Below are positions 9,018 to 32,000 of a stretch of DNA of 32,000 nucleotides, piece after piece (the first letter of the stretch is position 1; each line of letters starts with the position of its first letter). The stretch comes from Nostoc punctiforme PCC 73102. GTDB lineage: Bacteria; Cyanobacteriota; Cyanobacteriia; Cyanobacteriales; Nostocaceae. The position numbers and the translations under genes were made by a program. The notes under the pieces were generated by a model. It was not told the DNA's origin and did not search any database. It was given only the letters and a program-made list of their open reading frames with translations. The stretch is taken from NCBI RefSeq assembly GCF_000020025.1, contig NC_010628.1, positions 1,410,001-1,442,000 on the forward strand, given 5' to 3'.

Positions 9018-10184
9018 TTACTTAACCTCGGCTGTTGCGGCTTGACGTGCTGCTTGCATGGCTTGAACAAATTGCTCAAACAAGTAATCGGCATCGTGTG
9101 GGCCAGGACTGGCTTCTGGGTGATACTGTACAGAGAATACAGGTAGAGATTTGTGACGTACCCCGGCAATGGTGCGATCGTTTAAGTTTAGATGGCTGAT
9201 TTCCACAACTGCCGTAGGTAAAGAATCTGGATCAATAGCAAAACTATGGTTTTGGCTGGTAATTTCTACCCGTTGTTGTAAACCCGCAGGCTGATTTAAA
9301 CCACGATGACCAAATTTTAATTTATAGGTTTCTGCACCTAATGCATGACCTAAAATTTGATGCCCCATACAAATACCAAAAATGGGTTTTTGACTTAACA
9401 AAAGCGCTTTGGCAGTTGCAATCCCTCCAGTGACGGCAGCTGGGTCGCCCGGCCCATTAGAAAGAAACACACCATCTGGATTGTAATTGAGGATTTCTTC
9501 TGGTGGCGTATCAGCAGGCACAACAATTACCCGACAACCGTAACTTACTAAGCGACGCAAAATGTTGCGTTTTACGCCAAAGTCAAGGGCGACAACGGTA
9601 AAGGCTTCTCCAAGATTTTCCGCAGCCTCACAGTTGAATTCCCAAGCTGGAATTGTGGGATCTGACCATTCATAAGCCGTTGATGTGGTGACTTCGCGAA
9701 CCAGATTCAATCCCGCCATGTTGGGAGCCGCCTGTACCTGTTCTAGCAATTCCGCCTCATCGAGAATAGTTGTGGAAATGCCACCGTTCATGGCTCCAAA
9801 CATCCGAATTTTGCGGGTGAGGGCGCGGGTATCTATGCCGTAGATCCCTGGTACTTGGTTTTGTTTCAGGTAGTCTGGTAAGGATTGTGTCGATCGCCAG
9901 TTACTTGGTCGTTGACAAATATTTCGGGCGATCGCACCCCGCACTTGAGGGCCATCTGATTCCTCATCTTCAAGATTAATACCAGTATTGCCTAATTCAG
10001 GATAGGTAAAAATGACAATCTGACCACAGTAACTAGGGTCAGTCAGTACTTCTTGATATCCGGTCATGCCAGTGTTGAACACCACTTCTCCGATCGCGGT
10101 TCCTGTAGCACCGAAAGACCAACCGCGATAAGTGGTTCCATCTGCCAGGACAAGTAAAGCAGGTATTGCGTCAGTCAGGGGCAT
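9018..10184 (-). CDS. carA: carbamoyl-phosphate synthase small (glutamine amidotransferase) subunit
   Basis: 388 aa. N-terminal [16 protein letters not shown] and [18 protein letters not shown]. GATase triad region GICMGHQ and [13 protein letters not shown]. Confidence 0.95.
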
Positions 10185-10193
10185 AGTAAGTTG

Positions 10194-10249
10194 GGGAATT
10201 GGGAATTGGGAATTGGGAATTGGGAATTGGGAATTGGGGATTGGGAAAA
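10194..10249. repeat. heptamer array GGGAATT x6 plus 2 degenerate copies
   Basis: Read directly, starting 10 nt upstream of the carA start codon. AGTCTCC/CCCCAGT-type repeats follow to about 10296. Confidence 0.9.
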
Positions 10250-10381
10250 CTTTTCCCCACCTAGTCCCCAGTCTCTAGTCTCCAGTCTCCAATACTGCGA
10301 TTGTTAATTATCCCATGAGTTGGGCAGTTGGGAGTTTTTAGGATCGTTAATTAAAATTAAAAGGGAATTAAACTAGCGGCA

Positions 10382-11458
10382 GTGGATTTGGCAAAGCTTG
10401 GGCAGTTAAAATTAATTATGCTTCAGTCTTTTTTATCCCGTGCAACCCTAATTTTTTTATCAAGCGCTCTAGCGGTTTTGTGTGTTGCCTGTAGTGAAGA
10501 CAAACAAAACACTGCGACTGGTGGCAATGAGCAACCCGCGCCAATTGGGGATCTGGCATCAGCACAGCCTGCCGTCAAACCACGAACACCAGCTGTTACG
10601 CCAGAAGTACAGCCGCTAGAGCCGTCTGAAAGTGAACCCAGTATTTTTGAACAGGGGCTAGACAAAGCGGTTGGCGCTTGGAGTATCAGCCGTTCTGCTC
10701 AATCTCCAGGTGATTGGATTTTGGTGGCGAATCAGTACCAGGATGCGATCGCGCTGATGCAAAGAGTCCGGCGAAAAAGCCCAGAATTTGCGATCGCTCA
10801 AACCAAAATTACTGAATATCGCCGCCAAATTAAATATGCCCAACAACAAGCTACTCCTCGCCCTGTGCGTCTTGCCGAACCAAAGAGAATAGTGGTTGTG
10901 GTGCCCCAAACAACAATTACACCAAAGTATACCTCGCCTCCACAAGAAACAAAACCGTTACCAATAGAGCCAGGTTTGCCCTCATCAGCAGTGGTGATTC
11001 CAGATCAGGAAGTATTTACAGCGCCGATTAAAAGGCGAATTGGTGGAACGCCAATTGTGGAAGTCACTTTCAATGGCCAACGAGAATTTGAGATGATTGT
11101 GGATACGGGAGCCAGTGGCACTGTCATCACCCAACAGATGGCCAATGCTTTGGGAATCGTGACAGTAGGGAGAGCTAAAGCAAATACCGCTAGTTCTAGA
11201 GCTGTAGAATTTCCTGTGGGCTATGTTAATTCGATGGCCGTTGGTGGGGTAATAGTGAATAGAATCCCAGTAGCGATCGCAGGTGCGGAACTAGAAACTG
11301 GACTTTTAGGGCATGACTTTTTTGGCAACTACGATGTCACCATCAAACGTAATGTAATAGAATTTCGCCCGCAATCGCGATCGCAAATTAATTCCCCAGA
11401 AACTCAACTAACTGCTCCAACTTCGTCCAAGCTGCCCCGCTTTGTAGGATATCCTTAG
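10382..11458 (+). CDS. retropepsin-like (clan AA) aspartic protease with N-terminal signal/lipoprotein-like anchor
   Basis: Active-site motif [13 protein letters not shown] and LLGHDFF near the C-terminus. Hydrophobic N-terminus [19 protein letters not shown] at 10418 is a more likely start than GTG 10382. Confidence 0.75.
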
Positions 11459-12476
11459 CGATTTTAATCCCTTGGGCGTGATCCAGCAGTGCGATCGTAC
11501 CTGCTACTTGCAACGCCAACGACGCATTCAACGCAACAGCATCTTGTTGCGCCTGAGTTCCCTTACCTTGGAGTACCGCCTTGAGAATTACTGCATTCTC
11601 TTGGACATCTCCACCCCGAAGCATACCTATGGGAGCAGGTGTTAGATCCAAATCTAGGGGATTAATGGTAGTTACCTGTACTTCTCCATCTGATAAAACC
11701 GCTAAGTCAGTTTCATCTCCTAACCCAGCCTCATCAAGTTTTTCTCGCCCATGCAAAACAATCGCCTTTTCCTTGCCCAAATTGTTTAATGCTTGGGCAA
11801 CAGTCGCCAAAAGTTTGGGAGTAAATAGCCCCACAACTTGCCCACTAGGACGCAAAGGATTTACTAACGGCCCCAGTAAATTAAACACCGTTCTTACCCT
11901 AAGAGTCCGCCGCAATTGGGCAACTGCTTTAAGTGCTGGATGCCAACCAGGTGCAAACAAAAAAGTGATCCCCACCTCTTGTAATGCGGCTTGCACCTTG
12001 TCACTGGATGCGCTTAAGTTTACACCCAAGGCTTCCAATACATCTGCGCTCCCCGTGAGACTTGAAGCTGAACGATTACCGTGTTTAGCAACTGGTACGC
12101 CAGATGCAGCCGCAACAAAAGCAACGGCTGTGGAAATATTAAAGGTTGATGAACCATCTCCACCCGTGCCACAGGTATCTATTACAGTGCTGAGTGCTGT
12201 TGATAGCGGGGCGTTTAGCCCGTGCTGAGTGCTAAGTGGGGAAGATTGGGATTGTAATACTTCAGCCATACCAGTCAACTCATCGGCAGAAATGCCTCTA
12301 AAGTTCAGCGCTGTTAAAATAGCCCCTGATAACTCTGGGGGAACCGCTTCACTAAGCCAACCTTGCATCAATTCAGCAGCTTGAGTACGGGATAAGGATT
12401 GGCCATCTATTAATTGTTGCAGCAGCATATACCAGCTAGCAGAGGCTTCTTGAGCAGAGATTGGAAAAGTTGTCAT
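11388..12476 (-). CDS. trpD: anthranilate phosphoribosyltransferase
   Basis: 362 aa. Motifs: [29 protein letters not shown], and NLLGPLVNP in [13 protein letters not shown]. Confidence 0.93.
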
Positions 12477-14265: not shown

Positions 14266-15561
14266 TTATTGTACTGCTCTAACGTAATTATCCAAAGTTA
14301 AATTGCCTCTTGCGCCCAATTCTTTAGCTTCTATAATATTTTTTTTGTGAAAATCCAGTAAAATCTCTCTATACTTAGGTCTACTTAAATAACCTAGTTT
14401 GCCAATTTCAAGAATAATAAGACTTATTACGTCTTTCAAAGTTATCCAATCTTGATTATTTCTTCGTAAAATCTCAATAATTTCAGGTCTAATTGTTTCA
14501 ATTCGCTCATCATTTTGACGCTCCCATGATTGAGTCAGAAATTTATGATTTTTTCCAGTTTTATCATCTTCAAAGAAAAGCAACTTATTTTCTTCACAAA
14601 AAAATTCGTTTAAAAACTCACCAAAAGCTTTCTGCGGATGGTTACTACCAACTACAATATTGTACTGAGGTCTAGAATCATTGTATGTTTCCTTAATTTC
14701 AAAAATAGCCACTCCTTTAAAGGTACTTTCTTTTTGAAGCCTAGACTTAAAATATTCAAGCGCCCACCTTTCAAATTTTTGTTTTTGTTCTTGATCTTGG
14801 CATTCTAGCCACTTGGGTTTCCAGTCTAAATCAGAGCTATGTCCTAATAAGTTAGTTAAATTTTGTGTGTATGTTTCGGCAGTTTTCTGGTCTTTAGAAT
14901 TTTTATAGCTTGTTTTATATAAACCTGCATGGCGAGCTACTGCGCGGTTATGAAATAGTAAAAATAATTCTCCTTTATATTTACTAACGTAATTGGCAAT
15001 AGAACATATTTGCTCAAAAGTTACTCCCTTAACTCCAAACGCATCCAGAAAAAATAACGTTGGGTATTTGTCCAATTCATTCATTATTTGAGTGAATGCT
15101 TTATCAAATCTTTGAGGTTCATAAACTTTATAGGACAATCCTTCACTTATTAAATTACAGTTACTTTTGAGTTCTTGGTTAAGGTCTTTCTTTTCCTCGG
15201 TAAAAAAACATCTTAAGGTAACACGTTCTTCAAAACTAAATATCTTAGCACATTTAAGAGCTATCAAAGGCGAACCGTCTGTATCCAAAAATTCGGTTTT
15301 GTATCTCTGCCAAAACTTCGATTGATCTACAAAATTTTCAATACCAATCCCTTCATCGTATTTGCCTGCTCCTGCAAAACCATCAACATAGTTAATATAC
15401 ATAGATTGATAGGATTTGCTACCGCCCAAATTATAGCAATAAGCCTGTATATATTTCAGCATTATCCGATGTTTGGCTGCTGACCAAGGTCTTTTACGAG
15501 CAAAAAATTTATTTGAATCTTCTGGTTGTTGATCAAATAGAGATAATTGTTTTACTGACAT
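14266..15561 (-). CDS. tcmP: TcmP-like (three-Cys-motif partner) protein with methyltransferase-like Rossmann motifs
   Basis: 431 aa. Motifs: WSAAKHRIMLKYIQAY, VDGFAGAGKY (motif-I-like FxGxG) and FFLDAFGVKG (Trm1-like LDPFG). It lies immediately upstream of the DUF5131 gene. The family assignment is from memory of TIGR04474. Confidence 0.55.
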   Translation of the reverse strand: MSVKQLSLFDQQPEDSNKFFARKRPWSAAKHRIMLKYIQAYCYNLGGSKSYQSMYINYVDGFAGAGKYDEGIGIENFVDQSKFWQRYKTEFLDTDGSPLIALKCAKIFSFEERVTLRCFFTEEKKDLNQELKSNCNLISEGLSYKVYEPQRFDKAFTQIMNELDKYPTLFFLDAFGVKGVTFEQICSIANYVSKYKGELFLLFHNRAVARHAGLYKTSYKNSKDQKTAETYTQNLTNLLGHSSDLDWKPKWLECQDQEQKQKFERWALEYFKSRLQKESTFKGVAIFEIKETYNDSRPQYNIVVGSNHPQKAFGEFLNEFFCEENKLLFFEDDKTGKNHKFLTQSWERQNDERIETIRPEIIEILRRNNQDWITLKDVISLIILEIGKLGYLSRPKYREILLDFHKKNIIEAKELGARGNLTLDNYVRAVQ

Positions 15562-29997: not shown

Positions 29998-30864
<867 letters not shown>

Positions 30865-30945
30865 CCTTGTAGGGAAGGGGAGTAAGGCTTTTAGAAGAGA
30901 GAATCTAAATAACACGCATTGGACTACAAAATTTGTAGTATCCCC

Positions 30946-30974
30946 TTGACATTATGTAGAGTTCGTATTACATT
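30946..30974 (+). promoter_or_regulatory. near-consensus sigma70-type promoter (TTGACA - 17 nt - TACATT) facing the tRNA-like cluster
   Basis: TTGACA at 30946-30951 and TACATT at 30969-30974. TTTGTAGTA repeats flank it at 30932-30940 and 30973-30981, the first within the palindrome ACTACAAAATTTGTAGT. Confidence 0.4.
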
Positions 30975-31055
30975 TGTAGTATGAAAAGAAAAGCCTCCTC
31001 AAAGGCAAAACTAAAACCTCTCACAAGCTAGACAATTGCATAGATGCCACTGTTT

Positions 31056-31136
31056 GGGGCCGCGATTGGTGTTCGACTGCTCCGAAGCCAACAAACGGAC
31101 GGTTGCAGGATTCGGGTTCAATTCCCGACGGCTCCA
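31056..31136 (+). ncRNA. 81-nt tRNA-like element resembling a tmRNA tRNA-like domain (no mRNA-like domain)
   Basis: Acceptor GGGGCCG / CGGCTCC with G3:U70 and discriminator A. The 5' sequence GATTGGTGTTCGAC resembles the tmRNA D-loop analogue. T-arm TCGGG-TTCAATT-CCCGA. The central part is a 4-bp helix plus a 4-bp hairpin with an 11-nt loop, not an anticodon arm. CTA follows rather than CCA. Confidence 0.4.
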
Positions 31137-31172
31137 CTAGACTTGACTGCGGTTGAAGTTGTGTAGAGGCTT

Positions 31173-31379
<207 letters not shown>

Positions 31380-31428: not shown

Positions 31429-31650
<222 letters not shown>

Positions 31651-31962
31651 ATTTCCTAGTCATCCGTGCCCTAACAGAAGAAGCATACATACACATTGAT
31701 AACGGCCCTAAGGTAGTAAAGTTCGAGTGATCGGACTAAGCGAAGCATGATTTCTAAGTCTCTTGCAGATTTAGCGTGCGTGCCCACTGCCAATATTTGG
31801 TAAGAGCGGCCGTAGCTGTAAAAAGCTTCTTGAACTTGTACGGAATGATTTAAGACTTAATTCCGCGCCCTAACTTGTAAAGTCTACACACTATCCGGCA
31901 ACGGATCGCAGGTACCCTACGGGAACGCTACGCGAACGATTCCTGTCGCTCCCTTTGATGGG

Positions 31963-32000
31963 AGCGTAGCCAAATTGGTATAGGCAATTGTGAAAACTGC
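31963..32000 (+). other. 5' portion of a further tRNA-like gene, cut by the window edge
   Basis: GGGAGCG-TA-GCC-AAATTGGTATA-GGC resembles the acceptor plus D-arm of Gln/Cys-type tRNAs. Its exact complement CGCTCCC lies 6 nt upstream. Confidence 0.3.

Follow-up and report, generated by a model that had tools for sequence, protein, structure and literature searches.

The tRNA-like half of transfer-messenger RNA (tmRNA, SsrA) appears to exist in cyanobacteria as a gene in its own right. In a 32,000-nt stretch of the Nostoc punctiforme PCC 73102 genome (assembly GCF_000020025.1, contig NC_010628.1, positions 1,410,001 to 1,442,000; hereafter the window), we describe an element of 81 nt, mini-tmRNA, which lies at 31056..31136 of the forward strand and which comparative sequence analysis identifies as a real, conserved small-RNA gene, a predicted tmRNA paralogue reduced to the tRNA-like domain (TLD). 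Its relatives are linked either to an operon that encodes a putative Ro60 homologue and Y-RNA-like RNAs or to stress-induced tRNA arrays. We favour, with a probability of about 0.4, the reading that mini-tmRNA would act during translational stress as a rescue RNA that leaves no tag, or as a competitor of tmRNA itself. tmRNA is viewed as a single housekeeping RNA in which the tRNA-like and the mRNA-like halves work together; the family described here would mean that selection can maintain the tRNA-like half alone, presumably beside a normal ssrA.

The element and its family

From 31056 to 31139 the element reads GGGGCCG-CGAUUGGUGUUCGA-CUGCUCCG-AAGCCAACAAACGGA-CGGUUGCAG-GAU-UCGGGUUCAAUUCCCGA-CGGCUCC-A-CUA. 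Its two ends pair in a 7-bp acceptor stem (31056-31062 with 31129-31135, GGGGCCG/CGGCUCC) that contains the G3:U70 pair (31058:31133) and is followed by the discriminator A (31136). The D-loop analogue CGAUUGGUGUUCGA (31063-31076), of the GG..UUCGAC type and without D-stem, leads into helix P2 (31077-31084 with 31100-31108), on which sits a conserved 15-nt loop, AAGCCAACAAACGGA (31085-31099), and the T-arm UCGGG-UUCAAUU-CCCGA (31112-31128) completes the domain. The 3' trailer of the window copy (31137..31139) is CTA; CCA is not encoded there, and its addition after 3' trimming would be needed. Only 24-32 nt stand between the two TLD halves. Neither the sequence nor ARAGORN gives an mRNA-like domain, a resume codon or a tag reading frame, and the body, a single interrupted helix with the 15-nt loop, has none of the pseudoknots PK1-PK4 and no anticodon arm with an alanine anticodon. 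An earlier note on this DNA had proposed a tmRNA TLD at 31056-31139, with this acceptor, G3:U70 and discriminator A, a tmRNA-type D-loop analogue and a canonical T-arm, and had found in it no anticodon arm, pseudoknot or tag frame. All of this stands: the stem and its identity residues are in the sequence as claimed, the D-loop analogue and the T-arm align to the Rfam tmRNA consensus, and the sequence, ARAGORN, the covariation structure and the minimum-free-energy (MFE) fold agree on the missing parts.

Both ends of the Rfam tmRNA model (RF00023) align exactly to 31056-31139, with 24 nt standing for the 316-nt body. At 46.6 bits (E 5.6e-17 when 1.4 kb was searched) the window copy stays just under the gathering score of 47, which is why it goes unreported in an Rfam search of the whole window at gathering thresholds. 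Orthologues at three of the loci fetched for comparison (L001, L004 and L006) score 48.0-48.3 bits, above the cut-off, and a variant from a tRNA array scores 31.9 bits. Clan competition in Rfam retains the tmRNA match over tRNA (RF00005), and ARAGORN calls neither a tRNA nor a tmRNA nor a tag peptide at the locus. The check with ARAGORN and Infernal that the earlier note had proposed is thereby divided, with no call from the former and a match near the cut-off from the latter; its fear that covariance models would score the element as noise is not borne out. A covariance model of the family itself (R1, built from 29 distinct members) gives the window copy, whose sequence is the commonest allele of the family, 112.7 bits. 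The matches that come next after the family are tRNA-Ala genes, at 25 and 21.7 bits, and R1 detects no copy in operons that lack a mini-tmRNA gene.

A degenerate pattern, consisting of the tmRNA 5' end, 20-50 nt, the T-arm and the acceptor 3' strand with U70, was scanned against one genome per species of the GTDB collection. It matched 53 loci, 46 of which are cyanobacterial species, every one with a copy of exactly 81 nt; these carriers are mostly Nostocales, with some Pseudanabaenaceae, Leptolyngbya and Microcoleaceae. The earlier note had named a lack of conservation elsewhere as something that would count against the element, and what we find is the same gene in these 46 species, with synteny kept in about 40 loci. 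Once plasmid and metagenome copies are added, the family comprises 29 distinct sequences; a metagenome scan with a loop-based pattern returned only 4 loci. A phage origin was considered and rejected, the viral contigs of IMG/VR having given no match.

The structure that we tested pairs positions 1-7:74-80 in the acceptor, 22-25:50-53 and 27-29:45-47 in P2, and 57-61:69-73 in the T-stem. Standard pairs occupy 99.1% of cells in the 29 distinct sequences, and two-sided changes occur at 7 of the 19 pairs, spread over the acceptor, P2 and T stems; in the acceptor, pairs 5:68, 6:67 and 7:66 covary. With a value of 0.207 the covariation score exceeds that of shuffles (0.068; none of 500 reaches 0.207), and controls with slid partners stay at or below 0.068. 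G1-G4, U70 and A73 are invariant in all 29 sequences, as are G13, G14 and U18-C22 (UCGAC) in the D-loop analogue, where U17 is A in two tRNA-array variants; the T-loop and the 15-nt loop (AARCCAACAAACGGA) show little or no variation. By these comparisons the family is conserved, and its substitutions show purifying selection for a tmRNA-type fold, the predicted alanine identity set being complete and invariant throughout. Pair 28:46 goes from C:G to U:A in eight sequences, which backs the pairing CUGC-U-CCG / CGG-UU-GCAG with the 15-nt loop, and the CCG/CGG pairing is also that of the MFE fold. The earlier note was therefore right to see a short helix in the body and mistaken about its inner hairpin, UCCG/CGGA with an 11-nt loop: changes there are one-sided only, whereas CCG/CGG has the eight compensatory ones. 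Its remark that no CCA is encoded holds for the window and not for the family at large, since among the 57 copies examined about a dozen do encode CCA, ending in ...CUCCACCA; the others have CTA, TTT or CTT. Because the 3' trailer varies in this way among copies, its state in the window is unremarkable.

Some other ways of reading the element were tried and rejected. First, a tag frame starting from GCC AAC AAA in the loop would cross the T-arm and has no conserved stop codon, and its GCC is ACC in about half of the sequences. Second, a permuted two-piece tmRNA is suggested by weak matches of the Rfam tmRNA_permuted model (22.3 and 13.5 bits), which merely reuse T-arms. Third, pairing of the 15-nt loop with an operon RNA or with rRNA comes down to a 9-nt match to the 23S GAC strand, which we judge to be chance because it depends on the variable loop position 32 (A or G).

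Outside the family there are other tmRNA-like sequences that consist of a TLD only (63-85 nt; L017, L019, L032, L035, L049 and L052), to which the family model gives 40-50 bits. They come from Opitutales, Poribacteria, one unclassified cyanobacterium and two contigs of high GC content, the latter with phage-like neighbours (family A DNA polymerase, DUF7178). Two further candidates were discarded: a match in L027 overlaps a genuine tmRNA of 394 nt at the latter's 3' end, and an ARAGORN 'tmRNA' in L025, which appears to join the 3' end of mini-tmRNA with a 5' end upstream, was judged a probable artefact.

Promoter and genomic settings

Mini-tmRNA usually starts about 75 nt downstream of a promoter that carries the box TGTAGTAT. 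In the window a promoter scan places this promoter, with its TrcR-type operator, at 30931..30982 on the forward strand (TTGACA-17-TACATT), the -35 hexamer TTGACA being at 30946-30951 and the -10 hexamer TACATT at 30969-30974. Copies of a repeat, ATTTGTAGTAT (30931-30941 and 30972-30982; family D6 of the repeat finder), flank it, and the box occurs both directly after the -10 hexamer (30975-30982) and at 30934-30941. The 5' leader that follows (30983..31055) is conserved in orthologous loci; its start site and its removal by RNase P are predicted. A box of the TGTAGTAT type lies within 160 nt upstream of 47 of the 57 mini-tmRNA copies. Among the ten others, four (L029 and L064-L066) are inside tRNA arrays, three (L018, L031 and L036) have near-matches of the box, and L041, L042 and L051 have nothing like it in the 160 nt examined. 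In the Anabaena trn operon, the TrcR site mapped by footprinting is this same box (PMC10272220). TrcR represses this tRNA operon, rtcB and other translation-related genes, and the repression is relieved under translational stress; translation inhibitors induce the operon (PMC8421152, PMC10272220). By this likeness TrcR would bind the window promoter and control the induction of mini-tmRNA.

The commonest setting, with about 40 loci, is an operon in which mini-tmRNA is followed by a second, G3:U70-bearing tRNA-like RNA, which lies 120-180 nt downstream, and then by genes for proteins of 66 aa (p66), 240 aa (p240), 477 aa (annotated 'vWA'), 277 aa (p277) and 212 aa (ThiF/E1-like); p66 lies 350-520 nt downstream of mini-tmRNA, and the Ro60 homologue, which is the predicted nature of the 477-aa protein, and ThiF come after it. 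Of ten fetched loci with an identical p66, four have mini-tmRNA as in the window. In the cleaner of two alignments, mini-tmRNA and its flanks make up an indel of about 190 nt between a shared leader and the next RNA. The first alignment, made with MAFFT, had suggested a decayed relic upstream of the promoter in operons without mini-tmRNA; it was rejected, local alignments giving z of at most 1.1 against shuffles.

The second setting is the interior of tRNA arrays. The variant found there has the acceptor GGGGUGA/UCACUCC, compensated at three pairs, and the same loop. It lies between tRNA-Glu(UUC) and tRNA-Tyr in the trn array of Nostoc PCC 7120 plasmid delta (L064 3596-3676), and in other arrays in L065 (5225-5305), L066 and L029. 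In the PCC 7120 array 23 of the 26 tRNAs are charged in vivo (PMC8421152). Neither a tmRNA-like gene nor a Y-scaffolded tRNA-CUA unit, which the L065 array also holds, came up when the full texts of the two trn-operon papers (PMC8421152 and PMC10272220) were searched by term. Third, mini-tmRNA stands alone, with its own promoter of the same type and upstream of a signal-peptidase-like gene, in L018 (7418-7498, reverse strand), L031 (6273-6353, reverse strand) and L050 (6751-6831, forward strand), and these promoters carry the TrcR box or a near-match. In a Leptolyngbya locus (L062 5163-5243) it accompanies a tRNA-Trp and a gene for the RNA 2'-phosphotransferase Tpt1/KptA (Pfam E 1.5e-52).

A possible role and its precedents

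A functional alanyl-accepting mini-RNA, one of three readings offered by the earlier note, appears to be the best fit to these data. In the mechanism we envisage, impaired translation would lift TrcR repression and the operon would be transcribed. RNase P would cut the transcript at G1, and 3' trimming and the CCA-adding enzyme would finish the other end. AlaRS would then charge the RNA through G3:U70 and A73, and Ala-mini-tmRNA would bind SmpB and EF-Tu, enter ribosomes with an empty A site and accept the nascent chain; with no resume codon or tag frame it could not tag it. The 15-nt loop is probably a docking site for a partner. According to PMC3895274, which cites Shimizu & Ueda 2006, a truncated tmRNA consisting of the TLD only accepts peptidyl transfer in vitro.

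How far does mini-tmRNA resemble known RNAs? It shares with the TLD of tmRNA the 7-bp acceptor, G3:U70, A73, the D-loop analogue without D-stem, the canonical T-arm and the start of helix P2 with its flanking G/A residues, and we predict that it is homologous to this domain and works like it. It differs in that the body of about 300 nt has become a 7-bp interrupted helix and a 15-nt loop, and, with tag frame and pseudoknots missing, it does not count functionally as a tmRNA. Mini-tmRNA is accessory, linked to a stress promoter and found in some genomes only, in contrast to the housekeeping gene ssrA, which is universal. The nearest natural analogue known to us is the set of jakobid mitochondrial tmRNAs that Jacob et al. 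reportedly described in 2004, said to have an alanine-accepting TLD and no mRNA-like region; these are said to be the organelle's only ssrA, the outcome of genome reduction, whereas mini-tmRNA is a bacterial gene family in large genomes, presumably beside a normal ssrA. The construct of Shimizu & Ueda 2006, to go by its citation in PMC3895274, is the same kind of molecule, but it is an engineered fragment of the Escherichia coli tmRNA, and the natural mini-tmRNA has its own conserved 15-nt loop.

The bacterial Y RNAs YrlA, YrlB and Yrn1 are encoded next to the Ro60 orthologue Rsr, and YrlA of Mycobacterium smegmatis is cut by RNase P and receives CCA (PMC4201824). Mini-tmRNA is like them a small RNA that mimics tRNA upstream of a Ro60-family gene, with which it would be co-transcribed. 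It cannot be classed as a Y RNA, however: a terminal stem that binds Ro is absent, the P1 / CCCYRAC-AACUU / P2 scaffold common to the Y-RNA-like units U1-U6 described below is missing from it, and its two ends pair instead as an acceptor with alanine identity. What YrlA (RF02553) mimics is the D-arm, T-arm and acceptor stem of tRNA, not tmRNA. Long tRNA arrays of mycobacteria or phages contain tmRNA, RF1 and Pth genes (PMC5966550), so that a rescue RNA inside a tRNA array has a parallel there, although PMC5966550 calls those copies simply tmRNA genes. The Anabaena trn operon has the same TrcR box as the window promoter and, in PCC 7120, a mini-tmRNA variant inside the array.

In the published literature that we searched there is no description of a cyanobacterial mini-tmRNA or of the operon with the Ro60 homologue. 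Standard pipelines either miss the element (ARAGORN, the Rfam cut-off) or discard it as a pseudogene; the family may have gone unnoticed because duplicate tmRNA calls are routinely discarded by the curators of the tmRNA Website as pseudogenes or integration fragments (PMC4131195). Its recognition gives the well-studied Anabaena trn operon and the TrcR regulon a gene that had been overlooked, brings to light an unannotated operon with a Ro60 homologue that is widespread in filamentous cyanobacteria, and opens the question of what an alanyl-TLD does on ribosomes in vivo when no tag can follow.

A number of points weigh against the tag-less rescue reading. First, the benefit of entering ribosomes without a tag is conjectural, because the TLD alone cannot resume translation. 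Second, the window copy stays 0.4 bits below the Rfam gathering score and has no CCA. Third, mini-tmRNA is absent from six of the ten fetched operons with an identical p66, and is therefore dispensable there. Fourth, the other RNAs of the operon, rRNA fragments and closed-end tRNA modules, would act only as binding mimics, which favours a decoy role for mini-tmRNA too. Finally, the window operon may be a partly degenerate copy in decay, because neighbouring RNAs carry lesions (a 1-nt deletion in the anticodon loop of the inner tRNA and an insertion in the T-loop of unit U3) and a fragment of an insertion sequence (IS) lies upstream.

The operon and the rival explanations

Among the proteins of the operon p66 comes first (31450..31650 on the forward strand; MVHIRFEG...RPEAVYG), and an identical p66 is encoded at this place in many Nostocales genomes. 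The p66 family has 219 representatives, nearly all of which end in RPEAV[YF]G, a few having short tails. It belongs to no Pfam family; a profile search of the PDB gives weak uL23 matches only (E 1.4e-3), and some UniRef records label the protein 'TGS domain'. The ThiF/E1-like protein of 212 aa (L006 15693-16331) closes the operon. Together p66 and this protein look like a ubiquitin-like modifier and its activating enzyme, a reading suggested by the conserved C-terminus of p66, which ends in glycine and fits the expected pattern. No known family was found for p240, p277 or an optional 319-aa protein, and the structure model of p277 is unusable (pLDDT 44). PADLOC finds no defence family among the operon proteins beyond generic E1 matches.

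The 477-aa protein (L006 11886-13319), annotated 'vWA domain-containing / hypothetical', is by sequence and structure modelling a divergent, so far unannotated homologue of Ro60 of the TROVE type. Its gene lies 2.1-3.0 kb downstream of mini-tmRNA in most fetched loci, and the two would be co-transcribed. With phmmer the protein matches the structure of a Thermus phage Ro60 (PMC12135203) at E 0.007 over 370 residues. In its AlphaFold model (pLDDT 64) an all-helical N-terminal region precedes an alpha/beta C-terminal domain, and the C-terminal part matches vWA Pfam models. In a Foldseek search of the PDB the top four matches are all Ro60 (Xenopus, phage and human; E 1.4e-6 to 2.7e-5) and the next has E 0.059; the TM-scores with Ro60 are low (0.22-0.30). 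A profile search of PDB sequences loses the phage Ro60 match, which single-sequence and fold searches keep. The protein has 3349 relatives at E of at most 0.001; the best 120 of them, all at least 80% identical and from several cyanobacterial orders, include none that its source names Ro60 or TROVE.

Between mini-tmRNA and p66 lies the second tRNA-like RNA, which we call outer (31173..31379, forward strand), with the acceptor GGGUCUG/CAGAUCC followed by A, a D-arm and a T-arm. In place of an anticodon arm it has a Y-RNA-like stem (31206-31332), counted below as unit U1, whose cargo is an inner tRNA (31232-31303) called by both ARAGORN and Rfam. The whole segment hardly varies across the 11 loci compared, whether mini-tmRNA is there or not. 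The topology of the outer RNA, a tRNA-like domain closed by both ends around a large insert, recalls tmRNA. The anticodon of U1 is CUA in most species (L002-L010, about 9750-9890), which ARAGORN labels 'tRNA-Pyl', amber-reading; it is CCA (Trp) in two early-branching operons, from Pseudanabaenaceae and Leptolyngbya, and UUU or UCU in a few. In the window the 1-nt deletion leaves a 6-nt anticodon loop.

U1 is one of six units, which in L006 occupy 9741-9870, 10210-10400, 10408-10552, 11403-11530, 11705-11788 and 14500-14712. Their common scaffold consists of a closing helix of about 10 bp, an internal loop (5' CCCYRAC / 3' AACUU), a second helix of 6-9 bp and a cargo. The closing helices vary from unit to unit with complementarity preserved, and MFE folds recover the scaffold in five units, including the L006 orthologue of the outer RNA. 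In having a terminal stem, a conserved internal loop and a variable module, U1-U6 resemble Y RNAs. Their 5' motif GCCCYRA also resembles the motifs by which Y RNAs contact Ro, GGUCCGA and GNCGAA (PMC4201824). Because of the common scaffold, of this motif and of the YrlA-like order and weak YrlA match of U3, the units look like a family of Y-RNA paralogues, and they would bind the Ro60 homologue.

Unit U2 (31659..31849, forward strand) has a closing helix (31659-31669 with 31838-31849), the internal loop CCCUAAC/AACUU, a second helix and a cargo; the scaffold is seen in the MFE fold of an orthologue. In the cargo, 22 of 26 bases at 31699-31724 match E. coli 23S rRNA near helices 69/70 (z about 4.9 against shuffles; 3.3 for the L006 copy). 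U2 as a mimic of these helices was rejected: only this 26-nt stretch is involved, and we regard the resemblance as weak because BLAST and Rfam find nothing. Unit U3 (31859..32000, forward strand) is cut by the window end and is of the YrlA type, with T-arm, stem-loop and D-arm in that order; its L006 orthologue has the weak Rfam match to YrlA (RF02553; 24.6 bits, E 0.077). Compared with L006, the window copy has an insertion of about 25 nt, accctacgggaacgctacgcgaacg, in the T-loop (about 31914-31938). Short sequences like this one occur as variable inserts between operon elements at other loci. Unit U4, a tRNA after the 240-aa gene (L001-L010, about 11225-11502; L007 12690-12762; many of L011-L069), scores 49-60 bits as a tRNA. 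Its anticodon varies among close genomes (GAA, UAA, UGA, CAA, GCA, GCG, GAU, UAU, GGA and CUA), in what looks like diversifying change. Unit U6 (L006 14500-14712) holds an exact 14-nt sarcin-ricin loop, CUAGUACGAGAGGA, and about 50 nt after it a 54-nt copy of the L11-binding GTPase centre, which is 83% identical to E. coli 23S rRNA and reaches 53.3 bits with the Rfam LSU model, whose cut-off is 50. The 13-mer of the sarcin-ricin loop is present in 20 fetched loci from several genera, 11 of which also have the GTPase-centre copy. On one small RNA, U6 is thus predicted to display both rRNA elements of the site where translation factors bind; no such cargo, sarcin-ricin loop or L11/GTPase centre, was found in the Y-RNA literature examined.

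This company is the ground for the main rival of tag-less rescue, which we hold to be possible rather than probable. Mini-tmRNA would belong to a set of mimics of translation RNAs that, under translational stress, soak up or report toxins directed at RNA, RNases or ribosome-binding antibiotics, with damaged copies handled by the Ro60 homologue and RNA-repair enzymes. Speaking for a decoy or bait are the roughly six RNAs on one Y-RNA-like scaffold in the same operon, the two rRNA elements of U6, the species-variable anticodon of U4, the presence of the Ro60 homologue and, in L062, the linkage of mini-tmRNA to Tpt1. Moreover, rtcB is in the TrcR regulon (PMC10272220), and the tRNAs of the trn array have been proposed as sponges for toxin RNases (PMC8421152). 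Mini-tmRNA itself, however, has free tRNA-like ends and lacks the Y-type scaffold, and PADLOC yields nothing but the generic E1 matches among the operon proteins. The invariance of the full AlaRS identity set and of the region that contacts SmpB would be needed by a decoy only if its target reads exactly those features, and we know of no toxin against the tmRNA TLD in cyanobacteria.

The same observations can be extended to a ribonucleoprotein that resembles a ribosome in pieces, an idea that we regard as doubtful. A Ro60 ring would hold Y-type RNAs that present the GTPase-factor site, variable anticodons and the amber-type tRNA, together with charged mini-tmRNA, as decoys or baits by which attacks of ribotoxins, tRNases or antibiotics on translation would be sensed or absorbed, and the signal would be coupled to the ubiquitin-like/E1 pair. 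Mini-tmRNA would here either serve as bait for factors whose target is tmRNA or tRNA-Ala, or connect the system with stalled ribosomes.

It is unlikely that the fold is mere processing punctuation, an entry site for RNase P or RNase Z that trims or stabilises the transcript and releases an RNA without a role. Mini-tmRNA follows the leader and precedes the next RNA in a long transcript rich in RNAs, which would suit this, as would the existence of operons that work without it and the cleavage of M. smegmatis YrlA by RNase P (PMC4201824). Punctuation could, however, do without G3:U70, without a D-loop analogue of the tmRNA type and without an invariant 15-nt loop; the next RNA has a tRNA-like 5' end of its own, and near the stand-alone copies, which have their own promoter, there is nothing that could be punctuated.

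Quite improbable, in our view, is a role as alanine donor, in which Ala-mini-tmRNA and the outer RNA would feed a non-ribosomal transferase, or the E1-activated glycine of p66 would be joined to mini-tmRNA. Two acceptor RNAs with G3:U70 do stand directly upstream of p66, RPEAV[YF]G ends the protein in almost every member of its family, and the operon also encodes a ThiF/E1-like enzyme and two proteins of no known family, p240 and p277. This case is purely contextual: no transferase domain was detected, the p277 model is of no help, many operons keep p66 and ThiF without mini-tmRNA, and copies of the latter exist in tRNA arrays and alone with no p66 detected nearby.

A dead remnant, whether an ssrA deletion pseudogene left by recombination or a duplicated attachment site of an island, as the earlier note had also proposed, has in its favour the missing tag frame and pseudoknots, the lack of an ARAGORN call, the IS transposase fragment upstream and the habitual discarding of duplicate tmRNA calls by curators (PMC4131195), yet it is very nearly untenable given the constant 81 nt in 46 species of several cyanobacterial orders, compensatory changes in all three helices that contradict recent horizontal spread of one dead sequence, both acceptor strands where an attachment-site relic should keep one ssrA end, a fixed place behind a conserved regulated promoter, recurrence in three kinds of context and no integrase detected near the window copy. 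The transposase fragment just mentioned is a truncated open reading frame (30077-30679; DUF772 and the tail of a DDE domain) between an aldehyde dehydrogenase gene and the operon promoter, and it ends about 380 nt upstream of mini-tmRNA. This aldehyde dehydrogenase gene is also found upstream in L001, L006 and L008, where the corresponding gap has no gene, as judged by gene calls only. In the window the fragment is followed by a 17-nt inverted repeat (30754-30789).

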